From contig JACMJZ010000032.1 in the NCBI GenBank assembly GCA_014380365.1, positions 104,860-168,859 on the forward strand: a stretch of DNA of 64,000 bases, read 5' to 3'. The notes under the pieces are model-generated. The model was given only the letters and a program-made list of their open reading frames with translations. It did no database searches and was not told the origin of the DNA. Shown here one piece after another: positions 4,026 to 62,273 of the stretch. A program made the translations under genes and the position numbers. This DNA is from Pyrinomonadaceae bacterium (lineage in GTDB: Bacteria; Acidobacteriota; Blastocatellia; Pyrinomonadales; Pyrinomonadaceae). Position 1 is the first letter of the stretch. Every line of letters starts with the position of its first letter.

Positions 4026-4029
4026 TTTA

Positions 4030-4105
4030 CCACTAAGACACAAAGACACTAAGGAATCCAAAGTGAAACCCTGGATCTTACCTTAGTGTCTTTGTGTCTT
4101 AGTGG
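4030..4105. repeat. perfect 25-bp inverted repeat (CCACTAAGACACAAAGACACTAAGG / CCTTAGTGTCTTTGTGTCTTAGTGG), 26-nt loop
   Basis: Arms at 4030..4054 and 4081..4105, between convergent genes. Likely a bidirectional terminator or REP-like element. Same word family as 30687..30760. Confidence 0.8.
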
Positions 4106-4112
4106 TCCTGCT

Positions 4113-7953: not shown

Positions 7954-7957
7954 GGAA

Positions 7958-8042
7958 GGTCCAAAGTCCAAAGGCCAAAGTCCAAAGGCCGGTTTAGCTA
8001 CACTGACATTTGACTTTGGACCTTGGACCTTGGACTTTGGAC
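7958..8042. repeat. imperfect hairpin made of CCAAAGT/CCAAAGG words and their complement
   Basis: Left arm GGTCCAAAGTCCAAAGGCCAAAGTCCAAAGGCC (7958..7990). Right arm GACTTTGGACCTTGGACCTTGGACTTTGGAC (8012..8042). It ends 10 nt before the carA ATG. Confidence 0.7.
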
Positions 8043-11644: not shown

Positions 11645-11740
11645 GTCAGTACCGCCTGCGGTAGCGGGCGGGTGCCTGTAACGTCAACGACCCACCTGCT
11701 ACCGCAGCTGGACCCACCCGCTATCGCAGGTGGTACTGAC
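11645..11740. repeat. 29-bp inverted repeat of the ACCGCCTGCGGTAGCGGGCGGG family
   Basis: Arms at 11645..11673 and 11712..11740 with 3 transition mismatches, plus a partial third copy in the loop. Same core as 34114..34224. Confidence 0.75.
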
Positions 11741-23278: not shown

Positions 23279-23407
23279 GGCGGGGGCAAGCCCCCTTCCT
23301 GACTTTCGAGATTATTCGACCCATGTCTTGGCCTGAGATCAAAGCTTGAAGAAAAGTAATTGCGACTCAGAAAGTCTCTAAGGTCAGGAAGGCGGGCTGG
23401 CCCCCGC
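23279..23407. repeat. MITE-like element, ~25-bp terminal inverted repeats GCGGGGGCAAGCCCCCTTCCTGAC
   Basis: Arms at 23279..23303 and 23383..23407 with a ~80-nt spacer. Same family as 33223..33357 and 40807..40881. The right arm contains the stop codon of the histidine kinase. Confidence 0.75.
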
Positions 23408-26400
23408 TCCTTTCAGTTGCAGCGTGAACACATTGGAGCCACTCTTCAGTTTGTCCCAGGAAATCTCCGCATCAATCAGACTCGCACGCGCGAGCATGTT
23501 TGCCAACCCGCGCCCGCTGCTTTTCTGGTTGGGATCAAGAGCGCGACCGTTGTCTTCGATCGTCAGGATGAAATTGGGCGCAGCGTGTACTTCCATCCTC
23601 ACGTGCGTGGCGCCGGCATGCCGGCAAATGTTACTCACCGACTCCTGCACAATGCGATAAATCTGCATTTGCACATTTCCCGGCAGTCGCGCGTGTTCCT
23701 CCAGATGTTCGTCGCAAACAAATTCGTACTCAAACCGCTGATCGGCCGGCGCATCCTGGACCGCATGGGAAAGCGCAAACTCCAGGGCCGCCGCGAACCC
23801 AACATTTTGAAGCACCGACGGACTCAGGTCTTCACAAATGCGCCGCACCTCCTGCGAGATTGATTCGATCTCACTGCGCAATGCGGCGGGGCCTGGTTGG
23901 GCATTGCGTTGCTGGCCACGTCGTTCACCCTCCCCGGGGTCACCGCTTGTTGGAAGCTGATCTGTTAGAAGTTGCAAGTGGCGCAGGTCGGCCAAAGTTT
24001 GATCGTGCAGGTCGCGCGCGATCCGGCGTCGCTCGCGTTCCGCTTCATTAGCGAGGTTGAGTCGCGCATCCGCCAGTTCGCGGTTCGCATCAACAAGCGC
24101 GGCGCTGGTGCGCGCAATCCGGCGCCTTTCGAGAATCGCCCAGATCAAGGCAAGCAGCGCCAGAGCCAGGAGAATGGCGAGCGCGGTTGAGGTCCATGGA
24201 AACGGCGACTTCGCAATAGCCAACTCAAACGACAACGGCTCCGAGGAAAGCAGATCCTTGCTGAACGCGCGCGCGGTGACTCGATACTTGCCCGCCGCTA
24301 GTCCTTCCATCGCAAACTGCGACTCGCGCGAGAGCCTCTGCTTGATGACCTTGCCGTTTCCGTCGAGCAGCGCAAACGAGTACTGAAACTGCTCCGGGAA
24401 AGTGCGACTGCTGATCGCCGCGACGTCCAGAAGCAAACTGTTTTGCGGATACTCGAGGCTGAGTCCTGACGCCAGTTCGCTGGGAGAATGCACGCGCTTG
24501 CTAATGACCCGAGTCGCATACAACGTGGGTGTTGTTCGGCCGGACTGGTAGCGCGCGATGCCGCGGCCCGTGCCGATGAGCACAGACTCGCTACCGTCCG
24601 GTTGAGACTCGGGACGAACTGCGAAGACGTTCTGCGAGGGCAGGCCCTGCTCGACGTCGAGTTGGGAAACCACCGGGCCAGCCTGATCGTCGAGCCTGAT
24701 CTTCAACAGCCCGTTTCCCGTGGTGGCGCACCACATCTCATTTCGTTTTGTTTCGGCATCGCGCGCGAGTGAACGCGCTTCGATTCCCGCTGCGGTCAGA
24801 ATGCACTCGCTGTCGGCCTTGCATAAATAGACGCCGCGATTCGTGGCGAACCACAACGTGTCGTCGAGCGTGCTCAGAATCGAGCGCACAGTGCTGCCTT
24901 TGAGTTTGGCGAAAGCCGGATCCTGCTTCACCTCGTTACCATCAAACGAGAGGACTCCGTCAGAGGCGGAGCCAACTAAGAGCCTGCGGTCGCCGTCGGC
25001 AAAAAGACTGATCACATCGCGTGGGACAGCGAGGTTTGCGCTCCAAAGATTCTGGAGCCGGCTCTCCTCAAGTCGCTCAACACCGCGCCCGTAGCTGGCG
25101 ACGTAAACCGATCCGCGAAATTGAGTGATGGCCCGGATGCTGCCGACCGCATCCGCATTACCGGAGCCGGCCTCAACTCTGTTGAAGCTGAGAGATTCGA
25201 GCTTCGTGTCCCTGGAAGGTCTTGTTCCCACATAGAAACCGCTGGCTGACCCGACGAGCAGACGTCCCTGATTGTCTTCGGCGATCGAATAAACGATATT
25301 CCGCGCGAGCCCGCCCACAGGGTTCCACTCAGACGATGAGGCGTCGTGAACGAAGAGCCCGCGGTTGGTTCCAGCCAACAGATGGCCCTCGGACGTTTGG
25401 TAAAACGTGCGCACGAAATTGCTTTCGGCCAGGTCGCCGATGGTCTCCACCCTGACCGCGTTTGGATCGAAACGACAGACTCCCCGGTCAGTTCCAAACC
25501 AAATCACGTCTTCGCGGTCCTGGAAAATCGTGTAGACGTGATCCGAACGCAAACCTCCTGCGGTGCCGTCAAACGTGTAACGCTGGACCTTCTTCCCTTC
25601 GGAGAAACGAAAGACGCCGCGTCCGTCAGTGGCAACCCAGACATCTTTTCCAATCGACTTAATACTCGTTACTGTCCCGGTCGGTGTTTCGTTGCGGACA
25701 AGTTTTTCCACTTCCCACCCCGTCAGAAGTGCCGGTTCCTCTTTCTTCACGCGCAGGCCGACCCAAAGTTTGCCGCTCGGATCCGCTTCCATCGAACGCA
25801 CAAAGAAACTTGTGGGCCGGGTTTCAATCTCGCGCGCCTGCCCGTCTGCAATCGCCAGCACGCCCCGACTGAACGAGCCGGCGAAGAGCGTATGGTTGAG
25901 CATCATCAAGCTCGTCAGTTGCAGTGCGCCCGGATTGTCGCGGTCGGCGCTTTGAAGTTGTTGAGTCAGCAGGGGCTCGGTCCGCCGTGATCCATCCGCC
26001 TGAATCCGGCAGTCGAAAATGTTTCCCTGCTCGGTAGCCAGCAGCGCACGACCGCTTTCAGGCGTGAGAATAGCAGCGATGGGGTGGCCGTTGATTTCCG
26101 TTATGGCTTCGAAACGGCCATCAACCATGCGTGCCGCGCCTGTTTCCGTGCCAATCCACAACGAGCCGTCCGCATCGCTTTGCAACGCCAGTACTCGGCC
26201 TGGCGCCAGACCGTTGATAGAGATGGTCTGAGTCCTGCGCCCGTCAAACTTTGCCAAACCCGCTTCCGTTCCAAACCACATCGCACCCTCCGGCCCCTGT
26301 GCGATCGCGTGCACCCGATCGGAAGGCAGGCCGTGAAAAAGTGTGACCGCGCCCCACTGGTGGAGCCCCGTAACGGGCGTCGGAGAAGGAGAAGGAGACG

Positions 26401-26593
26401 GCGATGGTGATGGTGAAGGACTTGGTGAAGGACTAGGGGAGGATCCAGGCTGAACCTCTTGAGATGAGGCAGGTGCCGGCGGTAGTAACGCGAGGGAGAA
26501 GGCAGTAAGCAGTAGGCAGAAGGCCGAAGGCAGGAAGAACTTGAAACGCAAAGGGCGCGAAGCAAGACGCAGAGAACGCGAAGCGATCCGCAT
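23384..26593 (-). CDS. sensor histidine kinase: periplasmic beta-propeller repeats plus Y_Y_Y-like region, TM, HisKA_3 and HATPase
   Basis: Repeated WFGT/WIGT/WVAT propeller motifs. H-box RRRIARDLHDQTLADL. ATPase IEDNGRAL...GRGLANM. Signal peptide and (SP)10 linker. Start taken at ATG 26593 (MRIASRSL). Confidence 0.85.
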   Translation of the reverse strand: MRIASRSLRLASRPLRFKFFLPSAFCLLLTAFSLALLPPAPASSQEVQPGSSPSPSPSPSPSPSPSPSPSPTPVTGLHQWGAVTLFHGLPSDRVHAIAQGPEGAMWFGTEAGLAKFDGRRTQTISINGLAPGRVLALQSDADGSLWIGTETGAARMVDGRFEAITEINGHPIAAILTPESGRALLATEQGNIFDCRIQADGSRRTEPLLTQQLQSADRDNPGALQLTSLMMLNHTLFAGSFSRGVLAIADGQAREIETRPTSFFVRSMEADPSGKLWVGLRVKKEEPALLTGWEVEKLVRNETPTGTVTSIKSIGKDVWVATDGRGVFRFSEGKKVQRYTFDGTAGGLRSDHVYTIFQDREDVIWFGTDRGVCRFDPNAVRVETIGDLAESNFVRTFYQTSEGHLLAGTNRGLFVHDASSSEWNPVGGLARNIVYSIAEDNQGRLLVGSASGFYVGTRPSRDTKLESLSFNRVEAGSGNADAVGSIRAITQFRGSVYVASYGRGVERLEESRLQNLWSANLAVPRDVISLFADGDRRLLVGSASDGVLSFDGNEVKQDPAFAKLKGSTVRSILSTLDDTLWFATNRGVYLCKADSECILTAAGIEARSLARDAETKRNEMWCATTGNGLLKIRLDDQAGPVVSQLDVEQGLPSQNVFAVRPESQPDGSESVLIGTGRGIARYQSGRTTPTLYATRVISKRVHSPSELASGLSLEYPQNSLLLDVAAISSRTFPEQFQYSFALLDGNGKVIKQRLSRESQFAMEGLAAGKYRVTARAFSKDLLSSEPLSFELAIAKSPFPWTSTALAILLALALLALIWAILERRRIARTSAALVDANRELADARLNLANEAERERRRIARDLHDQTLADLRHLQLLTDQLPTSGDPGEGERRGQQRNAQPGPAALRSEIESISQEVRRICEDLSPSVLQNVGFAAALEFALSHAVQDAPADQRFEYEFVCDEHLEEHARLPGNVQMQIYRIVQESVSNICRHAGATHVRMEVHAAPNFILTIEDNGRALDPNQKSSGRGLANMLARASLIDAEISWDKLKSGSNVFTLQLKGAGASPPS

Positions 26594-26655
26594 CAATTGG
26601 CGGGCAATTATTCCTTGCGACCTTTGCGGAAAGCTTTGCGTACTTTGCGGTGTGT
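26544..26655. repeat. imperfect hairpin of CGCAAAG-type words spanning the kinase start codon
   Basis: 26544..26592 carries GAAACGCAAAGGGCGCGAAGCAAGACGCAGAGAACGCGAAGCG. 26614..26655 carries CCTTGCGACCTTTGCGGAAAGCTTTGCGTACTTTGCGG. ATG 26593 lies in the loop. Same words as 54054..54127. Confidence 0.55.
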
Positions 26656-26657
26656 TT

Positions 26658-27431
26658 CTATTTCTTCCGTTGATTCGCACTCTTCTGTTCGTCTAAGAAG
26701 CGTTTCCCATCGCGCTCAAGCCAGGCTTCGAGTTCCTGGGCTGCCTTTTCCAGTTCGTCGTTGTTGAGTAGTCCACGTCGGAGCGCTTCAAAGAAGGCGC
26801 GCGTGCGTACATTGTAGGCGAGCTTTTCGTAAGCTTCGTGCGGCGTACCCTCCGCCGTTGAGGTGAAAAGCTTTTCGTAGAGCGTCGCCAGGCGGCTCTC
26901 CACGCCGCGCAGACTCAGCGAGCACTTCCGCGCAATCGCCCAGTTTGAAAGACCGAGCGCGAGATAGTAAAGCGCTTCTGATTCAAATTCAGTCAAGAGC
27001 GGCCGTTTGAACGAATCTTTGAACGCCGGATCGATCATGTCGGCGCCGTCTTCGAGTACCGCAGCTACGAAGCGGAGGAAACGCGACTCGGGATTGTTCT
27101 TGTGAATGAACCCGTAGGCCGGCGGCGGATCGACTGACTTAACAATCTTGCGGATCTCGTTGATATAAATTTCGTGTGGAAACTGCGTCCAGAAGATGAT
27201 GCGCGCGGAAGGGAAGTCGCGCCAGATAGCGCGCGCGGCTTTCACACCGGAAAGTTTGGGCATCTGGATGTCGAGGATGCAGAGCTCGGGCCGGTGCTCC
27301 AACGCCAGCTTGACCGTCTCCTCGCCGTCCGCTGCTTCCACGATGGGCAGGTGCGATGAAAACTCTTTGTCCAGAATCTCGCGCAGGTAGTGGCGCTGGG
27401 CCACGTTGTCTTCGGCAATTAGTATCGACAT
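26658..27431 (-). CDS. NarL/LuxR-type response regulator
   Basis: REC domain (MSILIAEDN..., ELCILDIQMPKLSG) and a GerE-type HTH (LTEFESEALYYLALGLSNWAIARKCSLSLRGVESRLATLYEKL). Lies directly upstream of the kinase. Confidence 0.85.
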   Translation of the reverse strand: MSILIAEDNVAQRHYLREILDKEFSSHLPIVEAADGEETVKLALEHRPELCILDIQMPKLSGVKAARAIWRDFPSARIIFWTQFPHEIYINEIRKIVKSVDPPPAYGFIHKNNPESRFLRFVAAVLEDGADMIDPAFKDSFKRPLLTEFESEALYYLALGLSNWAIARKCSLSLRGVESRLATLYEKLFTSTAEGTPHEAYEKLAYNVRTRAFFEALRRGLLNNDELEKAAQELEAWLERDGKRFLDEQKSANQRKK

Positions 27432-30686: not shown

Positions 30687-30760
30687 ACCACAAAGACACA
30701 AAGACACGAAGGTTTAGTTAAGACTGTATGCTTGTCTTTGTGCCTTCGTGTCTTTGTGGT
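30687..30760. repeat. imperfect hairpin of CACAAAGACAC words
   Basis: ACCACAAAGACACAAAGACACGAAGG (30687..30712) against CTTGTCTTTGTGCCTTCGTGTCTTTGTGGT (30731..30760). Same word family as 4030..4105. Confidence 0.7.
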
Positions 30761-34113: not shown

Positions 34114-34224
34114 GTTAGAACCGCCTGCGGTAGCGGGCGGGCCTGAGTTAACCACTCACTGACCTAAAGTCACTAAACGTTTCAACCGACTGATTGCCCG
34201 CCCGCTACCGCAGGCGGTTCTGAC
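34114..34224. repeat. 29-bp near-perfect inverted repeat, ACCGCCTGCGGTAGCGGGCGGG family
   Basis: Arms at 34114..34142 and 34196..34224 (1 mismatch) with a 53-nt loop. Lies between ribE and ribBA. Confidence 0.8.
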
Positions 34225-35606: not shown

Positions 35607-35720
35607 GGACAGACACTCTTGTCTGTCCCGAAGATTGATTGGACAGGATTAACAAGACTCACAAGATTGGAAAAACCATTAAACTGGTTCCCTTATCTTG
35701 TTCATCTTGTTAATCCTGTC
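35607..35720. repeat. two hairpins of GGACAG words
   Basis: GGACAGAC-ACTCTT-GTCTGTCC (35607..35628). A 16-bp perfect stem GACAGGATTAACAAGA (35642..35657) pairs with 35705..35720. Confidence 0.7.
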
Positions 35721-35788
35721 AAATCGTTCCAAGAAACGACAGGCAGGAATGCGAGTCGTACTAAACCACCTTCGCCGGCTCTAGTGTT

Positions 35789-40764: not shown

Positions 40765-43700
40765 ATGGGTGGATCTGCATCAGGGATGAACGCTGTGGAA
40801 TCTCATGGTAAGGAAGGTGGGCTTGCCCCCGCTGGACTTGAGCGCCACTCAAGCAGCGGGGGTAAACCACCCTTCCTAACCTGTAAATTTGCGGCAGTTG
40901 CGGGTTTCCATGGAAGTGGCTCCCAGCAACGCTCCAGCGCTTTCTCGTTCGCGGTTCTCATTTCAATCCTGCTTGTTGCGTTTGTCAGCGCAGAGGCGGC
41001 TTCGACTTTTGAGGAGTATGAGGGGCGACTGATCCGATCGATCGAAATAACTTTTGAGGGCTCTCCAGCTGACCCGGGAGCGCAAGCAGAGTTTCTTTCG
41101 CTGCTTGCGATTGTTCCCAACACAGAATTTTCGGCGGTCGGTGTCCGCGATTCTCTCCAGGCCCTGTTTGTGTCAGAGCGGGTGGCGAATGCGCGAGTGG
41201 AAGTGTTTGAAGAAGGCGCGCCCAAAACGGGACCGCTCCGCCTGCGCTTTGTTATTACGCGGCAAGTGCAGATTGGGGACATCAGGCTCGATCTGGTTGC
41301 TCCCACCGGCACGCCGGTTTCCGAGGACGAGCTGCGCGCTCGCTTGAATTTGACCCAACCCGGCGCTCGACTTTCCCACCAGGTAATTCTGCGCAACTCC
41401 GACGAGCTCCAGGTCTATTTGCGAGACCGCGGTTACTTCAACGCGACGATTGAGACGGCGGAACAACTGGATCCCAGCGGCACGCGCGCCACTGTGACTT
41501 ACAAGATTGTTCCCGGCGAACAATCGCGTGTGGCGGCCTTCAATATCGACATCACCGGGTTTGACGTAAATACGGTTCGGCCGTCGCTGGCGCTGCAACC
41601 CAACGCGCCTTTCACCCGCGAAGCGCTCGGCCAGGACACCAATCGCATTCGCCAGGCTGTAATCGAGCAGGGAAATCTTTCACCGTTGCTCAACGAGGCG
41701 AGGGTGGAACGCGACCCCGAGAAGAACCAGATAACGATAACTCTCAAAGGCGTCGTGGGCCCGAAGGTCAATGTCATCGTCAAAGACTTCCCGCTTAGCG
41801 AGAAGACACAACGCGAGCTTTTGCCGGTCAAACGCGAAGGCAACATCGATATCTCTGCGATAGTCGAAGGCTCGCGCCGGCTGCGAAACAAATTTCAGGA
41901 GGATGGCTATTTCTTTGCTGAGGTATCTGCTGTGTGCACCGTCACACCGCCCACACCCGAGTTTGGCGAGAACGGCACGTCCGCGACTTGCGAGACTCTA
42001 AATCCTGAAACCCTGACTGGTCGTAACGTTGAGATCCGCTACGAGATCGAACCCGGCCGTCGCCTCAAGCTGACTGACATTCGTATCACCGGCACAAACA
42101 AACTGACGTTTGATGACGTCGCCGCCGATCTGAGAACTCAGAAAGCCAGCGCGATAGGCTTGATTCCGTTCCTCGGATACGGACGCGGCTACACCAGCCT
42201 CACGCTCCTGGAACAGGACCGGCGCACGATCGACTCTTACATGCGAGATATTGGTTACCGCCGCGTCCAGACAAAAGTGCTGCAGGGTGTTTCGGTCGAC
42301 GGTGAAAGCGTGATCATCACCTTTGAAGTAAACGAAGGACCGCTGACTCGAATTGCCGGTGCTGAAGTTCGCGGCAACAAAATCTATACCGACCAACGAC
42401 TGCGGGATCAGTTGAAGACTGTTATCGGCGCGCCTTTTTCCCGATCCCAGGCCCGAGCCGACGGCGACCGCGTGCTGGCGCTCTATTCACGCGAAGGTTA
42501 CCTCAACGCGCAGATTGATTTTTCCATCGTCGAGCTGCCGAAGCGTGGTGACGAAGAGCAGGTCAAGCTGCTTTACACGATCGCAAACGAAGGCGACAAG
42601 GTCTACGTCAATCACATCATCGTTAATGGCGTTACCGGCAGCGATAAGGCGATGCGGACCAAGCGCGCGGCGATCCTGCGCGTGATTCCGCTGGCCGAGG
42701 GCGACGTCTTGCGCGCCGACAGAATCGCCGAAAGCGAGCGCGAACTCTATCTCACAGACGCCTACCGCCAGGTGATAATTCGCACCGAGGCCGCCGGCGA
42801 AACCATTTCCGGCTTCAAGCGCCGCGATTTGATTATAGACGTCGAGGAAAAAAAGCCGCGCGTGATGGACTACGGCGGAGGATTTTCAACTGATACCGGA
42901 GCGCTCGGGTTGTTGGAGATCAGCAACGTCAACTTGCGGAATAAGCTGCGACATGGCGCCATGCGACTCAGGGCCAGCCGCCAGCAGCAACGCGTTCGAT
43001 TGGAATATTTGGATCCGCGATTCGCCCGGTATGGCGAAAGGCAGTTCGCGCCGCTGGGGCTGTCGCTGGAATACTCGCGCGATTCCACGGTGACGCGATT
43101 TTTCCGTTCCGCAATTGACCGCGGCACGATGGGCATCGTGCAACGGCTGGACGAGGAAGGCAATGCGCTGGACGAGTTTGGCCTGCGAGTCAATGAGCCG
43201 ACCATCAATCGCTTCACGGCCACGATCGAGACGCAACGAGTGCTCAATTCCAAAACGCGATCGATTCTGTTCGCTCGTTATAGTTATGAAGACGTGCGCC
43301 TGTTCAATCTCCAGAGTTTGCTGGTGAGACCGATCCTCGAGCCCGATCGCGCAGTCCGTCTCTCCCGGTTTGGAGTCTCATTCGTTCGCGACACACGCCA
43401 GCGATGCGAGCGAGGTTTGCTCGGCGCCGTCAGCACGAGAGACGAATCGGAAACCGGCGCGCCCGGCGAAGTCTGCCGCTACAATCAGCTCGACGCCACG
43501 CGAGGCGATTTCTTCAACATTGATTATGCGGTCGCTTTGCGCCAGCTGGGCGGAAACATTTCCTTCAACAGGATGCAGGCCACCTACCGTCGTTATTACA
43601 AACTCGGCGGTCTGCGCGGTACGGTGCTGGCCGGAAACGCGACCCTCGGTCTGGCCAACGTTTTCAGCCCGCGCGATCGCAACGGCAATGGTTTGGATGA

Positions 43701-44262
43701 AATTGATCTAACCCTGCCGATTAGCGAAAGGTTCTCGTCCGGCGGCTCCACCACCCTGCGCGGATTTGATTTCGAACAGGCTGGCCCGCGGCAGGTAATA
43801 ATTCCGGCAGGGCCGTTTATCGATCAGAATAAGGAACCGGTGATCTTGAATCCCTTCACCGTTCCCGTCGGCGGCAATGCGTTGGCGATAATTAACCTGG
43901 AGGCGCGCATTCCAGTTTCCAAATCGCTGCAAGCAGTTCCTTTCTATGATGGCGGCAACGTGTTTCGGCGGGTGGGCGATTTGTTTGGTAAGAAAGACCC
44001 GGCGGTTGTGCCGCCGGGAGATGTCCTGGCCGCCATAAACGCCGCAAACCTGCGCGCCGCTTGGACGAATACGGTAGGGCTGGGGTTCAGAATTCAGACG
44101 CCCTTCGGCGGCGCCCTCGCCGTGGACTATGGGTTTCTGCTGAATCCGCCGGAGTTTCTGATTCCTCAGCGCGGCCCAGGCGGAATAGCCTACGACGGGA
44201 CGCCCGCCATTTATCGACTGAAGCGAACCCAGCTACACTTTAGATTCACGCAAACATTCTAG
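40765..44262 (+). CDS. bamA: Omp85/BamA-family outer-membrane protein assembly factor (POTRA repeats plus beta-barrel)
   Basis: POTRA-like repeats (IRSIEITFEG..., GDIRLD..., VAAFNIDITG..., LTDIRITGTNKLT..., IAGAEVRGNKIYT...). C-terminal barrel ending RFTQTF. No ATG, GTG or TTG lies in-frame between the repeat element and the signal-peptide core. Confidence 0.8.
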   Translation: MGGSASGMNAVESHGKEGGLAPAGLERHSSSGGKPPFLTCKFAAVAGFHGSGSQQRSSAFSFAVLISILLVAFVSAEAASTFEEYEGRLIRSIEITFEGSPADPGAQAEFLSLLAIVPNTEFSAVGVRDSLQALFVSERVANARVEVFEEGAPKTGPLRLRFVITRQVQIGDIRLDLVAPTGTPVSEDELRARLNLTQPGARLSHQVILRNSDELQVYLRDRGYFNATIETAEQLDPSGTRATVTYKIVPGEQSRVAAFNIDITGFDVNTVRPSLALQPNAPFTREALGQDTNRIRQAVIEQGNLSPLLNEARVERDPEKNQITITLKGVVGPKVNVIVKDFPLSEKTQRELLPVKREGNIDISAIVEGSRRLRNKFQEDGYFFAEVSAVCTVTPPTPEFGENGTSATCETLNPETLTGRNVEIRYEIEPGRRLKLTDIRITGTNKLTFDDVAADLRTQKASAIGLIPFLGYGRGYTSLTLLEQDRRTIDSYMRDIGYRRVQTKVLQGVSVDGESVIITFEVNEGPLTRIAGAEVRGNKIYTDQRLRDQLKTVIGAPFSRSQARADGDRVLALYSREGYLNAQIDFSIVELPKRGDEEQVKLLYTIANEGDKVYVNHIIVNGVTGSDKAMRTKRAAILRVIPLAEGDVLRADRIAESERELYLTDAYRQVIIRTEAAGETISGFKRRDLIIDVEEKKPRVMDYGGGFSTDTGALGLLEISNVNLRNKLRHGAMRLRASRQQQRVRLEYLDPRFARYGERQFAPLGLSLEYSRDSTVTRFFRSAIDRGTMGIVQRLDEEGNALDEFGLRVNEPTINRFTATIETQRVLNSKTRSILFARYSYEDVRLFNLQSLLVRPILEPDRAVRLSRFGVSFVRDTRQRCERGLLGAVSTRDESETGAPGEVCRYNQLDATRGDFFNIDYAVALRQLGGNISFNRMQATYRRYYKLGGLRGTVLAGNATLGLANVFSPRDRNGNGLDEIDLTLPISERFSSGGSTTLRGFDFEQAGPRQVIIPAGPFIDQNKEPVILNPFTVPVGGNALAIINLEARIPVSKSLQAVPFYDGGNVFRRVGDLFGKKDPAVVPPGDVLAAINAANLRAAWTNTVGLGFRIQTPFGGALAVDYGFLLNPPEFLIPQRGPGGIAYDGTPAIYRLKRTQLHFRFTQTF
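40807..40881. repeat. compact copy of the GGAAGG(C/T)GGGCTTGCCCCCGC element inside the bamA-like 5' coding region
   Basis: GGTAAGGAAGGTGGGCTTGCCCCCGCTG (40807..40834) against CAGCGGGGGTAAACCACCCTTCCTAACC (40854..40881). The loop is itself a hairpin, CTTGAG-CGCCAC-TCAAG. Confidence 0.75.
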
Positions 44263-44263
44263 A

Positions 44264-44435
44264 GAGCAGAAGGCAGTAGGCAGAAGGCACTAGGCAGAAG
44301 GCAAAACGCAGAAGGCAAAACGCAGAAGGCAGAGTGCAGATATGATGTGGTTACCTAAAACGCGAAGCTCCTTAGGCAGATTGTTTCGTTCGATCCTGCG
44401 TTCTGCTTACTGCCTTCTGGCTTCTGCCTTCTGCC
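44264..44435. repeat. long imperfect hairpin of GCAGAAGGCA words enclosing the start codon of the SurA-like gene
   Basis: The left arm 44264..44339 holds about 7 tandem 9-11-nt units. The right arm 44396..44435 (CTGCGTTCTGCTTACTGCCTTCTGGCTTCTGCCTTCTGCC) lies in the coding region. ATG 44342 is in the loop. Confidence 0.7.
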
Positions 44436-45088
44436 TTTTACTGCTCACTGCCCACTGCTCACTACCCACTGCTTCCGCCCAGCAGGTGGTCGACAAGATG
44501 GTGGCCACCGTGAACGCCGGCACCCAATCGGGGTGCGACCTTTGCTTAATTACCTATTCTGACCTGCTTTGGCAGCTGGCACTGCAATCAAAAACTTCTT
44601 TGGCCAGCCCAGGTTCAGACGAGCTCAACCGCGCTTTAGAATTGATCATCGATCAGAGACTCATTCTGGAAGAGGCTGAAAAACTGCCTTCCATCGAGCC
44701 GACCGCCGACGAAGTAACGGCCGCCCGCAATCAGTTAGCGCAAACGTTTCCATCGCGCGCGGAATTCCAACTACGCCTACAGCGGGTAGGCCTCACTGCC
44801 GATAAACTCAATCAAATTCTCGAGCAACGCGTCAGAATTGAAAAATATCTCGACTTTCGTTTTCGCAACTTCGTCGTGATCACCCAAACTGAGATCGCCG
44901 ATTATTACAAGGATGTCTACGTCACTCGACTCAAGGCACGCGCGCCCGGCCAAATCGTGCCCACCCTGGAAGACGCGCGCGGCGAAATAGAAAAGGTCCT
45001 CACTGAAGCCAAGATCGAATCTGACATGGATGCTTTTCTCGATAACGCACGCGAGCGCGCGGAGATTGTGATGCTGAGTCCGGTATGA
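44342..45088 (+). CDS. SurA N-terminal-domain-like periplasmic chaperone
   Basis: Signal peptide, then VVDKMVATVN...ELIIDQRLILEEAEKL and DYYKD..., typical of the SurA_N chaperone module. No parvulin domain. Confidence 0.65.
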   Translation: MMWLPKTRSSLGRLFRSILRSAYCLLASAFCLLLLTAHCSLPTASAQQVVDKMVATVNAGTQSGCDLCLITYSDLLWQLALQSKTSLASPGSDELNRALELIIDQRLILEEAEKLPSIEPTADEVTAARNQLAQTFPSRAEFQLRLQRVGLTADKLNQILEQRVRIEKYLDFRFRNFVVITQTEIADYYKDVYVTRLKARAPGQIVPTLEDARGEIEKVLTEAKIESDMDAFLDNARERAEIVMLSPV

Positions 45089-45170
45089 CTACGGATGAGG
45101 TCGACGCACGTGCACGTCCCACAAAGACTACAACGAAAATCAAACTGTCTTGCTTGCATTGGCGACGTTT

Positions 45171-45225
45171 AGAGTACAAGCTTCAGCTTGCGTGTTCTCA
45201 ATCTGCAACCTGAAGGTTGTACTCT
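45171..45225. repeat. 16-bp inverted repeat AGAGTACAAGCTTCAG (1 mismatch)
   Basis: 45171..45186 pairs with 45210..45225, upstream of the patatin gene. Confidence 0.6.
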
Positions 45226-45252
45226 GAACTGCCTGACTCCCAATCCGCAGTT

Positions 45253-50159: not shown

Positions 50160-50486
50160 ATGAGAAAACTAAGATTGTTAACAATGTCTGTGTTCCTGGG
50201 ATTGAGTGCGTTGATGGTATGCGCAAATCAAACCCTCGGGACCAATCTGAACGCGTGCGAGAGGGGCAACAACATCCTCAACGCTAGCGTGGTCAACAAC
50301 TCCATGAACGTAAACACAGCGAATAGCAACTCCGCGAACGCGAACGGAGACAACAACACCTCCATGAACGTAAACGGAGCGAATAGCAACTCCGCGAACG
50401 CGAACGGAGACAACAACACCTCCATGAACGCCAACGGGAGCATTAGCAACTTCTTGAACGCTAATAGGGAGAACAACAACTCCTGA
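50160..50486 (+). CDS. secreted Asn-rich tandem-repeat protein (108 aa)
   Basis: Signal peptide MRKLRLLTMSVFLGLSALMVCA, then NTSMNVNGANSNSANANGDN repeats. The frame is maintained through a 60-nt tandem repeat. Confidence 0.5.
   Translation: MRKLRLLTMSVFLGLSALMVCANQTLGTNLNACERGNNILNASVVNNSMNVNTANSNSANANGDNNTSMNVNGANSNSANANGDNNTSMNANGSISNFLNANRENNNS
50301..50480 (+). repeat. 60-nt tandem repeat x3 (copies 1 and 2 are 58/60 identical, copy 3 diverged)
   Basis: Copies at 50301..50360, 50361..50420 and 50421..50480. TCCATGAACGTAAAC(ACA/GGA)GCGAATAGCAACTCCGCGAACGCGAACGGAGACAACAACACC. Confidence 0.9.
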
Positions 50487-50677
50487 AGGCGAACGAGATC
50501 AGGACCTGAACCAGTAATTCGCCAGAAGCCTGTGCGTCCTTGCTCATTAGGTTTCGGGCCAATGTGACGGCAAAACACGGAGGTCTTAATGACAATCAAC
50601 CGAGAGATACCAAGGGCGATATATCTTCCGAAATATTGCGACAGTATCTCCCCCAACAAGACGAGGAGGGCTTTCAA

Positions 50678-54053: not shown

Positions 54054-54127
54054 GGCTTTGCGGTCTTTGCGCGCTTTGCGGTTTCGCAGTTTGTTTTACC
54101 GCAAAGGACGCCAAGAACGCGCAAAGA
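54054..54127. repeat. hairpin of CTTTGCG/CGCAAAG words
   Basis: TCTTTGCGCG (54064..54073) pairs with CGCGCAAAGA (54118..54127). CTTTGCGG (54074..54081) pairs with CCGCAAAG (54099..54106). Lies upstream of rlmN. Confidence 0.65.
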
Positions 54128-59627: not shown

Positions 59628-59633
59628 TAGCAT

Positions 59634-59733
59634 CCACAGATTACGCCGATTACACAGATTAAAAACAGAGTTGCCATTAGAGTTTTTATGACTGCCGTCG
59701 GTTTGGAATCTGCGTAATCGGCGTAATCTGCGG
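59634..59733. repeat. 27-bp inverted repeat of GATTACGCC/GATTACACA words (2 mismatches)
   Basis: CCACAGATTACGCCGATTACACAGATT (59634..59660) against AATCTGCGTAATCGGCGTAATCTGCGG (59707..59733). Confidence 0.75.
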
Positions 59734-59815
59734 ATATACATTTTCACCGGCGTTTGTGCTCTAAGCGTATCTTCAATATCATGCGACCCCAGGCGCGGTG
59801 CCCCCAATACAACTT

Positions 59816-61995: not shown

Positions 61996-62149
61996 TCCGA
62001 ATCTCCTCTCAACAGCTTCCGACAAACTTATGGCAAAAAGCTACTTTACAAACGCTTGTCGCAGGATAAACGCTAGCGCGCGGTGGAGCAAGGTCTAGTA
62101 CAATTCGATAGTATCCTGAACTTGAATTGATCGAATTCGAAGCCTGGAC

Positions 62150-62230
62150 CGGGGCACTAGCCCGACCGTCAGGGAGGGCTCTGATCGAGGCATGAGCGGA
62201 GCCCTCCCTGACGGTCGGGCTAATGCCCCG
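62150..62230. repeat. 32-bp inverted repeat (1 mismatch) with a 17-nt loop
   Basis: CGGGGCACTAGCCCGACCGTCAGGGAGGGCTC (62150..62181) against GAGCCCTCCCTGACGGTCGGGCTAATGCCCCG (62199..62230). Lies between the divergent Prx-like and ubiB-like genes. Confidence 0.8.
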
Positions 62231-62273
62231 CTCCGGTAACATGTCTACGCCAGCGCCAAAAGGAAACCCGTAA

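Follow-up and report, generated by a model that had tools for sequence, protein, structure and literature searches.

A heptamer-array hairpin behind a bamA-like gene whose 3' arm probably serves as the signal-peptide core of a SurA-like chaperone in Pyrinomonadaceae

Here we analysed a stretch of 64,000 nucleotides from a Pyrinomonadaceae bacterium (contig JACMJZ010000032.1; the whole stretch is called the window below) and, within it, a hairpin that lies between a bamA-like gene and the gene for a SurA-like chaperone. We conclude that this hairpin is probably an inverted pair of heptanucleotide arrays placed after bamA, that the start of the next gene is embedded in it, and that a Sec signal peptide takes its hydrophobic core from the translated 3' arm. 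On this reading, the hairpin at the 3' end of bamA would belong to a class that follows stop codons, and the chaperone-gene start would have become embedded in it. The purine-rich 5' arm would stay untranslated, the start codon and the n-region would occupy the 56-nt loop, and the 3' arm, together with an adjoining second array, would be read as the hydrophobic core of a leader cut at ASA/QQ. The analysis shows how the hairpin is built, that its 3' arm is translated, why that arm is hydrophobic, and that the hairpin was gained in evolution and has persisted; what the folded RNA may do is a more conditional matter, to which we return below.

The upstream gene is bamA-like by its Pfam matches (POTRA, 3e-40; Omp85, 8e-29). 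The 5' arm of the hairpin sets in 3 nt past its stop codon and runs, unit by unit, GCAGAAG, GCAGTAG, GCAGAAG, GCACTAG, GCAGAAG, GCAAAAC, GCAGAAG, GCAAAAC, GCAGAAG, GCAGAGT, GCAGAT, after which comes ATG 44342 (Table 1). Tandem Repeats Finder (TRF) reported this arm both as 9.7 copies of period 7 (44266-44333) and as 5.7 copies of period 14 (44261-44340). A preliminary description of this DNA, made from the letters alone, had counted about 7 tandem units here; the array is real, whereas the count has to be corrected to ca. 5.4 units of 14 nt or ca. 10 heptamers. The same description had placed the SurA-like ATG 44342 in the loop, which we confirm and extend to ATG 44345 and TTG 44381; every candidate start of the chaperone gene ahead of the conserved protein body lies between the arms. 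ATG 44342 abuts the end of the 5' arm and is the first in-frame start downstream of the TAG stop located in that arm.

The best inverted repeats have arms of 38-47 nt that are 81-87% complementary at a spacing of 56-93 nt. The repeat finder returned 13 alternative pairings (I1-I13), as expected of repeated arms that can pair in several registers, along with a direct-repeat family (D1). Folded as RNA, the 226 nt from 44255 to 44480 reached -95.4 kcal/mol, compared with -69.0 +/- 4.6 kcal/mol in 200 dinucleotide shuffles (z = -5.7), none of which folded as well. For the 10-mer word GCAGAAGGCA, one mismatch being allowed, we counted 15 copies across the window, about threefold the 4.8 +/- 2.2 of shuffled sequence; 14 of them fall at this locus and in the leader of a sensor kinase described below. 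All four of the features by which we tested for a heptanucleotide simple-sequence repeat in its inverted-pair form were found: tandem units of 7 nt, a convergent complementary array, a position after a stop codon, and unit variation among relatives. Directly downstream of the 3' arm comes a second pyrimidine-rich array, whose peptide LLLTAHCSLPTA completes the hydrophobic core as its second half and leads into the c-region, of which it forms the start (TRF: 44440-44473, period 14, 95% matches). This second array has no upstream partner in the window; its word builds the hairpin itself in many orthologous loci (CAGTGAG/CTCACTG in L124, L125, L131, L134 and others). The right arm had previously been read as encoding the hydrophobic core, with which we agree; the peptide then given for it, SAYCLLASAFCLLLLTA, corresponds to residues 21-37 (44402-44452) and overruns the arm into the second array.

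An AlphaFold model of the mature chaperone (202 residues, all-helical with a small sheet; pLDDT 81) had its best Foldseek matches in the PDB to SurA in BAM-SurA complexes (8pzv_F; E = 6e-4, TM 0.61/0.69), followed by the SurA entries 1m5y and 2pv3. At the sequence level, the link to SurA is weak (Pfam SurA_N_3, E = 0.008, below the cut-off), and no match to a parvulin peptidyl-prolyl isomerase (PPIase) domain was found in the mature protein, which in the model resembles a domain-deleted SurA core. Given this predicted SurA-like fold, and with its gene following bamA, the mature protein would act in the periplasm, outside the cytoplasm, and would require export. In a rule-based test for Sec signal peptides (charge of the n-region, hydrophobic core, small residues at -3 and -1), its leader has a basic n-region, an uncharged hydrophobic core (A22-L41), and small residues at -3 and -1. 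Across 120 orthologs, position -1 is occupied by A in 87, G in 31 and S in 2, and position -3 by A in 81, V in 31 and other residues in 8, position -2 being free; the best 12-residue hydropathy window among orthologs has a median of 2.35. The leader thus obeys the (-3,-1) rule of signal peptidase I, and a predicted cleavage site of the form A/V-x-A/G followed by QQ is kept throughout. No ATG, GTG or TTG occurs between 44381 and 44499, and therefore any signal peptide of the chaperone must include the 3' arm. Moreover, the cleavage site is conserved in hairpin-bearing and hairpin-free orthologs alike, which argues that ribosomes read the 3' arm as the hydrophobic core. The earlier proposal that the right arm codes for the core of a cleavable signal peptide is borne out by this -1/-3 pattern and by the hairpin-free orthologs, which have ordinary signal peptides at the same place.

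That the arm of a hairpin should encode a hydrophobic segment follows from the genetic code. Since 7 is not a multiple of 3, translation of a heptamer array passes through each of the three frames, and any entry frame gives the same 7-residue repeat. Words with 6-7 pyrimidines are always stop-free and have a mean hydropathy of about +0.9 to +1.05. Repeats of pyrimidine-rich words are uncharged and hydrophobic: CTGCCTT is read as LPSAFCL (+1.76), CTGCTCA as LLTAHCS, CCCCTTT as PLSPFPF, and CTTTTGC as LLPFAFC. Their complements are basic and hydrophilic, such as AAGGCAG (KAEGRRQ, net +2) and GCAAAAG (AKGKRQK, net +4), while others contain stops. Signal peptides tolerate almost any sequence that has the properties of a basic n-region and a hydrophobic core. 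A purine-rich 5' arm and a pyrimidine-rich 3' arm therefore amount to a ready-made n-region and hydrophobic core in front of an exported protein.

The history of the hairpin can be followed in related bacteria. More than 4700 homologs of the chaperone were found, the closest of them from Pyrinomonadaceae and Blastocatellia metagenomes, and 80 orthologous loci were retrieved, 72 with enough upstream DNA. The conserved protein body begins AQQVVDKMVATVNAG; what precedes it cannot be aligned, and yet nearly all of these leaders are made of 7-residue word peptides. In ca. 50 of the 72 loci (Pyrinomonadaceae), the matching place is taken by a hairpin whose 5' arm is rich in purines and whose 3' arm is rich in pyrimidines. 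Its 5' arm begins at a median of ca. 6 nt past the bamA stop codon (which follows ...FRFTQTF; 44 orthologs), its 3' arm lies at -80 to -7 nt relative to the conserved mature start AQQVVDKM, and its loop, mostly 60-160 nt long, holds the in-frame start and the n-region. Arm lengths vary, and the words are of six different types (GCAGAAG, CAGTGAG, GGGGAAA, GGCAGAC, GCAGGAG and GAGCAAA). In a phylogeny built from the mature proteins, these types are interleaved among close relatives, from which we infer that the words turn over fast despite the persistence of the hairpin, retained in 55 of ca. 57 clade members. The deepest-branching orthologs have no hairpin, with 65-79 nt from the bamA stop to the mature start, and the hairpin-free orthologs have ordinary signal peptides of 21-25 aa that end at the same AQQ or QQ (e.g., MKKLLPFTLVAFTLIAAAPLSA/QQ in L188). 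As read from these sequences, one Pyrinomonadaceae clade gained ca. 120 nt of hairpin, whose layout it kept through the turnover of words, the two arms changing together. A variant unit in one arm has its mirror image in the other: CGGTGAG is accompanied by CTCACCG in L124 and L125, and in L131 all 33 of 33 pairs match, with two variant units in mirrored order. Arm complementarity was 0.87, vs a mean of 0.76 after the order of units had been shuffled, and 16 of 35 hairpins had p <= 0.05, in a test that is somewhat biased because the observed register was chosen as the best one.

Signal-peptide codons are also drawn from this type of repeat in other genes. A sensor histidine kinase encoded by the window's minus strand needs an N-terminal signal sequence or membrane anchor, and the claim that a solo arm of the same family encodes its hydrophobic core (FFLPSAFCLLLTAFSLA) proved right; this array has no inverse partner nearby. 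The 16-mer CTGCTTACTGCCTTCT, said to be identical at both loci, is indeed exact at 44403-44418 (+) and 26497-26512 (-), with none expected by chance, and it reflects a common word family, not a shared copy. The kinase leader contains in addition a second word hairpin, absent from the preliminary description, whose 3' arm encodes an Arg-rich n-region, ASRSLRLASRPLRF, and in which ATG 26593 sits at the junction of loop and 3' arm. In a syntenic relative with 89% identity (L202), the solo array and the second hairpin are both more degenerate. Word-peptide leaders were found in 17 of 53 kinase homologs, some of which appear to translate the purine arm as the n-region (e.g., MKAKVKRQKAKVRAAVFTFAFCLLPFAFSISSAQ). 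Another Pyrinomonadaceae locus, L119, has two more hairpins of the same word ahead of exported proteins with Pfam support. In the first, a cytochrome c lipoprotein, the ATG overlaps the upstream stop codon and translation runs through the entire hairpin (MSKSEGQKAEGRKQKAERGRARAVFCCLLLSAFCLLLSGC) to a closing lipobox, ...GQKAEGRKQKAERGRARAVFCCLLLSAFCLLLSGC; the second, a SCO1/SenC protein, has the leader MRGAFCLLLSAFCLLPSAFCFA/QG. The use of the repeat as signal-peptide coding sequence in unrelated exported proteins, first suggested for the chaperone and the kinase, thus extends to further proteins with the same word, so that the link is not a coincidence; it is not general, in view of a control family discussed below. 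The recruitment of heptamer arrays as signal-peptide coding sequence is real, opportunistic and specific to certain loci.

The figure for the chaperone family itself, 102 of 119 SurA-like homologs with word-type leaders, is not an independent one, since the word-peptide signature was derived from SurA-like leaders; the signature is post hoc for that family and a fair test for the kinase and for the control family. It replaced an amino-acid period-7 score, which was too insensitive as a census tool because the arrays are degenerate. Many pyrimidine-sense N-terminal candidates in the pattern loci were spurious (open reading frames [ORFs] on the wrong strand, or arrays before cytoplasmic genes), and those with Pfam support were kept. 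A search of the 48-residue leader against 1.84 billion representative proteins gave 12 matches, all of them spurious ORFs through long arrays (P0121-P0132), and was thus of no use for counting genuine signal peptides. Long heptamer arrays also stand in databases as "proteins" of (LLPTAYC)n and similar repeats. As for the kinase, a (Ser-Pro)n linker (SPSPSPSP...; 26382-26434, minus strand) adjoins its leader, and a Pro/Ser/Thr-rich linker upstream of an invariant LHQWGAVT motif is conserved in its homologs.

Table 1. Coordinates in the window of the hairpin, of the genes around it, and of related repeat features
Feature	Position	Strand	Description
Upstream bamA-like gene (POTRA + Omp85)	40765..44262	+	1165 aa; stop 44260-44262; C-terminus ...HFRFTQTF
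5' purine-rich arm	44266..44339	+	GCAGAAG / GCAGTAG / GCACTAG / GCAAAAC heptamers, 14-nt super-unit; untranslated; in-frame TAG inside
Loop	44340..44395	+	56 nt; ATG 44342, ATG 44345, TTG 44381; basic n-region K6, R8, R13, R16, R20
SurA-core-like, putatively periplasmic chaperone gene	44342..45088	+	248 aa; no parvulin domain
Predicted signal peptide	44342..44479	+	46 residues; cleavage between A44-S45-A46 and Q47-Q48
3' pyrimidine-rich arm	44396..44437	+	CTGCGTT, CTGCTTA, CTGCCTT, CTGGCTT, CTGCCTT, CTGCCTT; encodes LRSAYCLLASAFCL (residues 19-32), first half of hydrophobic core
Second pyrimidine-rich heptamer array	44438..44473	+	ACTGCTC / ACTGCCC / ACTACCC; encodes LLLTAHCSLPTA
Sensor histidine kinase	23384..26593	-	Pfam Reg_prop 6e-32, HisKA_3, HATPase_c; periplasmic propeller domain
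Solo pyrimidine-rich array, kinase leader	26493..26536	-	encodes FFLPSAFCLLLTAFSLA, hydrophobic core; TRF period 7, 5.9 copies
Weak second word hairpin, kinase leader	26559..26658	-	CGCAAAG x4 (26658-26625) / CTTTGCG-type (26592-26559)
Window word hairpin	4029-4106		word CACTAAGA/CACAAAGA
Window word hairpin	7956-8042		word GTCCAAAG
Window word hairpin	30687-30760		word CACAAAGA
Window word hairpin	35637-35725		
Window word hairpin	54060-54120		word CTTTGCG
Window word hairpin	59632-59735		word CACAGATTA

The repeat itself is widespread. The pattern GCAGAAGGCA-N4-GCAGAAGGCA, of which ca. 1 chance match would be expected in the 185,579 species genomes scanned, was found in at least 120 loci. 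Among the matches listed, to which the counts for this word and its pattern loci refer throughout, 50 loci belong to Cyanobacteria, where the GCAGAAG word is abundant, 33 to Acidobacteriota, and 37 to other groups (Verrucomicrobiota/PVC, Bacteroidota, Planctomycetota, Chloroflexota and others), and 112 of 157 arrays of the GCAGAAGGCA-type word are non-coding. The repeat is therefore not the dispersed or mobile one of the preliminary description; with its word in at least 120 loci across phyla, it is a heptanucleotide simple-sequence repeat of the kind known from Cyanobacteria and Xanthomonas and not a lineage-specific element. The window contains six other word hairpins (Table 1), each with its own word of 7-9 nt and most beginning 2-30 nt past a stop codon; none lies between divergent genes in the 64-kb window. 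The purine arm is 5' in all six except 54060-54120. This polarity (purine 5', pyrimidine 3') holds in 21 cases to 0 for the GCAGAAG word with an inverse partner within 300 nt, in 37 to 0 when every word hairpin of the pattern loci (L002-L121) is counted, and in 31 to 4 in the ortholog loci (L122-L201), and it is identical when read on either DNA strand. Where word hairpins precede genes for cytoplasmic proteins, the start lies beyond the 3' arm, as with ATG 8052 after hairpin 7956-8042 and, in pattern loci, the genes for PNPase and phosphopentomutase.

Several results weigh against our interpretation. In the window hairpin itself, complementarity is not significantly higher than in shuffled unit order (0.87 vs 0.83, p = 0.34). 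In 46 ortholog hairpins, there is no excess of G.U-compatible mismatches on the sense strand (39, vs 48 of A/C type), and therefore selection on an RNA stem and arm-to-arm templated correction in DNA are indistinguishable; the latter could by itself explain the covariation. Export and cleavage of the chaperone are predictions from rules and orthologs. A terminator consensus scan found no site at 44266-44440, and no T-run follows the stem apart from TTTT. The second kinase hairpin is weak, with arms of 34 nt that are 74% complementary and a z of -1.8 (13 of 200 shuffles folded as well). Finally, in our control family, that of an exported M19 dipeptidase encoded in the window, 0 of 116 homologs have a leader of the word type, and 7 of the ca. 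9 exported proteins of the window have ordinary signal peptides.

What the hairpin may do as RNA is best approached through its relatives in the same genome. By analogy with the genome's other post-stop hairpins, it would most likely be a 3'-end stabilizer or attenuator for the bamA mRNA; the REP (repetitive extragenic palindromic) sequences of E. coli classically stabilize upstream mRNA. As a side effect, or as an added function, it may occlude the initiation region of the chaperone gene until the stem opens. In a partition-function folding model, the probability that ATG 44342 is unpaired is 0.12 with the left arm and 0.86 without it, which makes such an occlusion plausible. That the hairpin acts as a terminator is a guess: with a loop of 56-93 nt and no U-run, it departs from an intrinsic terminator. 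Rfam gave no match at the gathering threshold anywhere in the window, and at E <= 1 returned only plant miRNA precursors and similar generic hairpins, which we rejected as chance.

One alternative, which we consider possible and hold only tentatively, is that the leader is first of all a selected regulatory device, in which the hairpin would be a translational gate or a processing site tying chaperone synthesis to bamA expression or to melting of the stem, with signal-peptide coding secondary. It overlaps with our preferred explanation rather than excluding it. The start-in-loop hairpin has been kept by nearly the whole clade despite rapid word turnover, whereas the kinase array decays in the close relative L202; variant units are mirrored between the arms, and folding predicts a paired start only in the presence of the left arm. 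These points are offset by mismatches without a G.U bias, by repeated arms that permit many pairing registers, by the lack of any Rfam family beyond chance matches to plant miRNA precursors, and by the fact that template switching in DNA can yield concerted evolution of the arms without selection.

At the other extreme, and in our estimate rather unlikely, the arrangement could be a neutral by-product, in which arrays expand by slippage wherever they are tolerated, signal-peptide codons being one such place, and in which the hairpin has no function. Most arrays of the word are non-coding and phylogenetically scattered, and their repetition is imperfect, the longest perfect run having a median of 13 nt; the arms in the window are no more complementary than their word composition predicts, and mismatches show no RNA-type bias. 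Neutrality sits poorly, however, with the retention in ca. 50 orthologs of the hairpin form, of a position 1-10 nt after the bamA stop and of the start-in-loop layout. Nor does it fit the mirrored variant units in 16 of 35 hairpins, a polarity that is nearly always purine-first in pattern loci and orthologs alike, and the lack of hairpins between divergent genes.

A bolder proposal, to which we give little credence for now, is that the purine-5'/pyrimidine-3' hairpins are a selected, self-renewing module of Acidobacteriota that serves three ends at once, as an mRNA 3' hairpin, a translation gate and a complete signal peptide. If so, the two arms would encode the basic n-region (purine) and the hydrophobic core (pyrimidine), an arrangement exemplified by the cytochrome c lipoprotein of L119, and hairpins would be a general route for the birth and replacement of signal peptides. 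The fixed polarity would then exist because accidental translation of either side is harmless or useful.

Insertion of copies of a miniature mobile element (a MITE [miniature inverted-repeat transposable element], a REPIN or a REP-like sequence) at both genes is, in our view, very unlikely. The repeat is palindromic, adjoins stop codons and has an identical 16-mer at two loci, and enterobacterial repeat units provide a precedent for intergenic elements inside genes, including a predicted signal peptide (PMC2759123). Against this, the two loci share only a family of 7-nt words, which builds a hairpin at one of them and stands as a solo array at the other; the window's hairpins differ from one another in word, and the window shows no near-identical full-length copies with defined ends. 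Among the orthologs, unit number and word vary continuously at a fixed position; the same word recurs across unrelated phyla, and neither terminal repeats nor target duplications were seen.

We judge it highly improbable that the repeats form a phase-variable contingency locus like that of Neisseria opa, in which gain or loss of one 7-nt unit would shift the frame and switch the chaperone or the kinase on and off. In common with the CTCTT repeats of opa (PMC3960869), the array sits near the 5' end of the coding sequence and has a unit length that three does not divide. The arrays, however, are in frame with a start codon at each of the 72 orthologous loci, although rare variants would not be visible in consensus assemblies; the longest perfect period-7 run in the coding arm is 17 nt here and has a median of 13 nt and a maximum of 31 nt in orthologs; and both genes do housekeeping work in the cell envelope of a soil bacterium that lives free. 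It is the degeneracy of the arrays and their unbroken frame that make phase variation unlikely. Least credible of all is that the repeats are untranslated and the true start is the invariant Met of DKMVATV (ATG 44499): it has a Shine-Dalgarno-like AGGTGG 8 nt upstream and is used by one public gene call (P0029), but hairpin-free orthologs carry canonical signal peptides before the same AQQVVDKM, the preceding residues obey the (-3,-1) rule, AQQVVDK itself varies conservatively at the protein level (V/I, Q/E/T), the model predicts a periplasmic SurA fold, and the gene follows bamA. A start downstream of the repeats, which the preliminary description had named as fatal to its claim, is thus not what the orthologs indicate for the SurA-like gene.

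With these alternatives set out, we return to our preferred reading, that of an inverted heptamer pair with an embedded start and a translated 3' arm, and to its surroundings. Many public gene models of SurA-like orthologs (P0034, P0039, P0046, P0060, P0115 and others) begin in or before the purine arm, for instance with MQKAEGRRQKAEG... or SGQWAVKSGQWAV..., and are probably over-extended. Within the bamA cluster, a hairpin lies between each pair of consecutive genes. One of these, a long hairpin without a word (45167-45229; 25-nt arms, 88% complementary), stands between the SurA-like stop (45088) and a patatin-like gene. Another hairpin, made of GGTAAGGAAGGTGGGCTTGCCCCCGCTG and its complement (40807-40881), lies in the 5' end of the bamA ORF as listed, and translation of bamA probably begins farther downstream, close to the hydrophobic segment SSAFSFAVLISILLVAFVSAEA.

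Repeats of other kinds are also present in the window. A dispersed palindromic element, CCGCCTGCGGTAGCGGGCGGG, with copies at 11645-11740 and 34117-34221 (5 matches in the window vs 0.01 expected), resembles a REP-type family and differs from the word hairpins. At 62146-62234, GGACCGGGGCACTAGCCCGACCGTCAGGGAGGGCTC and its complement form the 36-nt arms of a hairpin whose translation, PSLTVGLLPR..., recurs in the N-terminal leaders of many kinase homologs; leader peptide is thus encoded by a repeat of a second kind as well. Lastly, a tandem repeat at 50294-50495 (60-nt unit of two 30-nt half-units, 3.4 copies, 85% identity) lies in a region that holds only a doubtful minus-strand ORF (50228..50677).

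The arrangement described here suggests a sequence-level route by which export signals may originate or be replaced, in that a common intergenic repeat is already hydrophobic, stop-free and independent of frame, while its complement is basic. It also offers a case in which an RNA or DNA hairpin and a protein-sorting signal share the same bases over a long evolutionary span, with ca. 50 natural variants in which the two constraints can be compared. For the BamA-SurA-like gene pair of Pyrinomonadaceae, it points to possible post-transcriptional control. For annotation, the consequences are ortholog gene calls that are probably over-extended and spurious array "proteins" in the databases. Finally, it extends the range of heptamer-repeat hairpins from Xanthomonas and Cyanobacteria to Acidobacteriota, and exposes a near-absolute purine-first polarity that is as yet unexplained.

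Heptamer repeats have a long history in Cyanobacteria, where short tandemly repeated repetitive (STRR) sequences of this unit length were reportedly described by Mazel et al. in 1990. The closest counterparts that we are aware of are the heptanucleotide repeats of Xanthomonas (GGGAATC) and Nostoc (GGGGA(C/T)T) (Rehm et al. 2015, PMC4692102). In Xanthomonas, 70-75 inverted pairs in convergent orientation are able to form stem-loops, the G-rich strand lies at most 50 bp after stop codons, and pairs are under-represented between divergent genes (PMC4692102). Our repeats share with these the tandem, imperfect 7-nt units, the mostly intergenic location, and a copy number and sequence that vary among close relatives, and the geometry of the pairs is the same. 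However, the Xanthomonas and Nostoc repeats are described as non-coding, with a G-quadruplex function proposed and no translation of an arm mentioned (PMC4692102), whereas here the 3' arm is coding, the loop holds the start codon, and a clade of family rank has kept this layout.

Three further systems invite comparison. Like the CTCTT repeats of Neisseria opa (PMC3960869), the present array, placed at the 5' end of the coding sequence, has a pyrimidine-rich, non-triplet unit and supplies the hydrophobic stretch of a signal peptide; unlike them (long, perfect, phase-variable, without inverse partner or hairpin, and belonging to surface antigens), our arrays are degenerate, in frame at every orthologous locus, and found in housekeeping genes. 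The TAACTGA heptamers of Beggiatoaceae, Cyanobacteria and Bacteroidetes are direct repeats upstream of start codons, translatable in reverse orientation as the 7-residue repeat LSVISYQ, and a role in translational regulation has been proposed for them (MacGregor 2015, PMC4679880). They resemble ours in being heptamers at gene starts that can be translated in one orientation, but they are almost all direct (one inverted case), of a single word, and without reported use in signal peptides (PMC4679880), whereas ours are inverted and of many words. The enterobacterial RU-1/ERIC and RU-2 intergenic repeats have been found inside genes, including a predicted signal peptide (Delihas 2007, PMC2759123); these, however, are isolated cases of mobile elements of ca. 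100-170 bp with a fixed sequence and without ortholog conservation, whereas the present repeat is a simple-sequence one, found in ca. 50 orthologs, for whose hydrophobicity the genetic code gives an explicit reason.

Finally, the word hairpins resemble REP, BIME and REPIN palindromes (PMC3116915) in being abundant hairpins just after stop codons, in co-directional or convergent intergenic regions. They differ from REPs, which form a conserved sequence family mobilized by RAYT transposases, in that each hairpin has its own word of 7-9 nt, with no shared full-length consensus. Our literature search found no account of the arm of a heptamer hairpin serving as signal-peptide coding sequence, of family-wide conservation of such hairpins with covarying arms, or of arm polarity in Acidobacteriota. 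The components, namely heptamer repeats, inverted pairs and coding leader repeats, are each known from the systems above; their combination at a signal peptide appears to be new.

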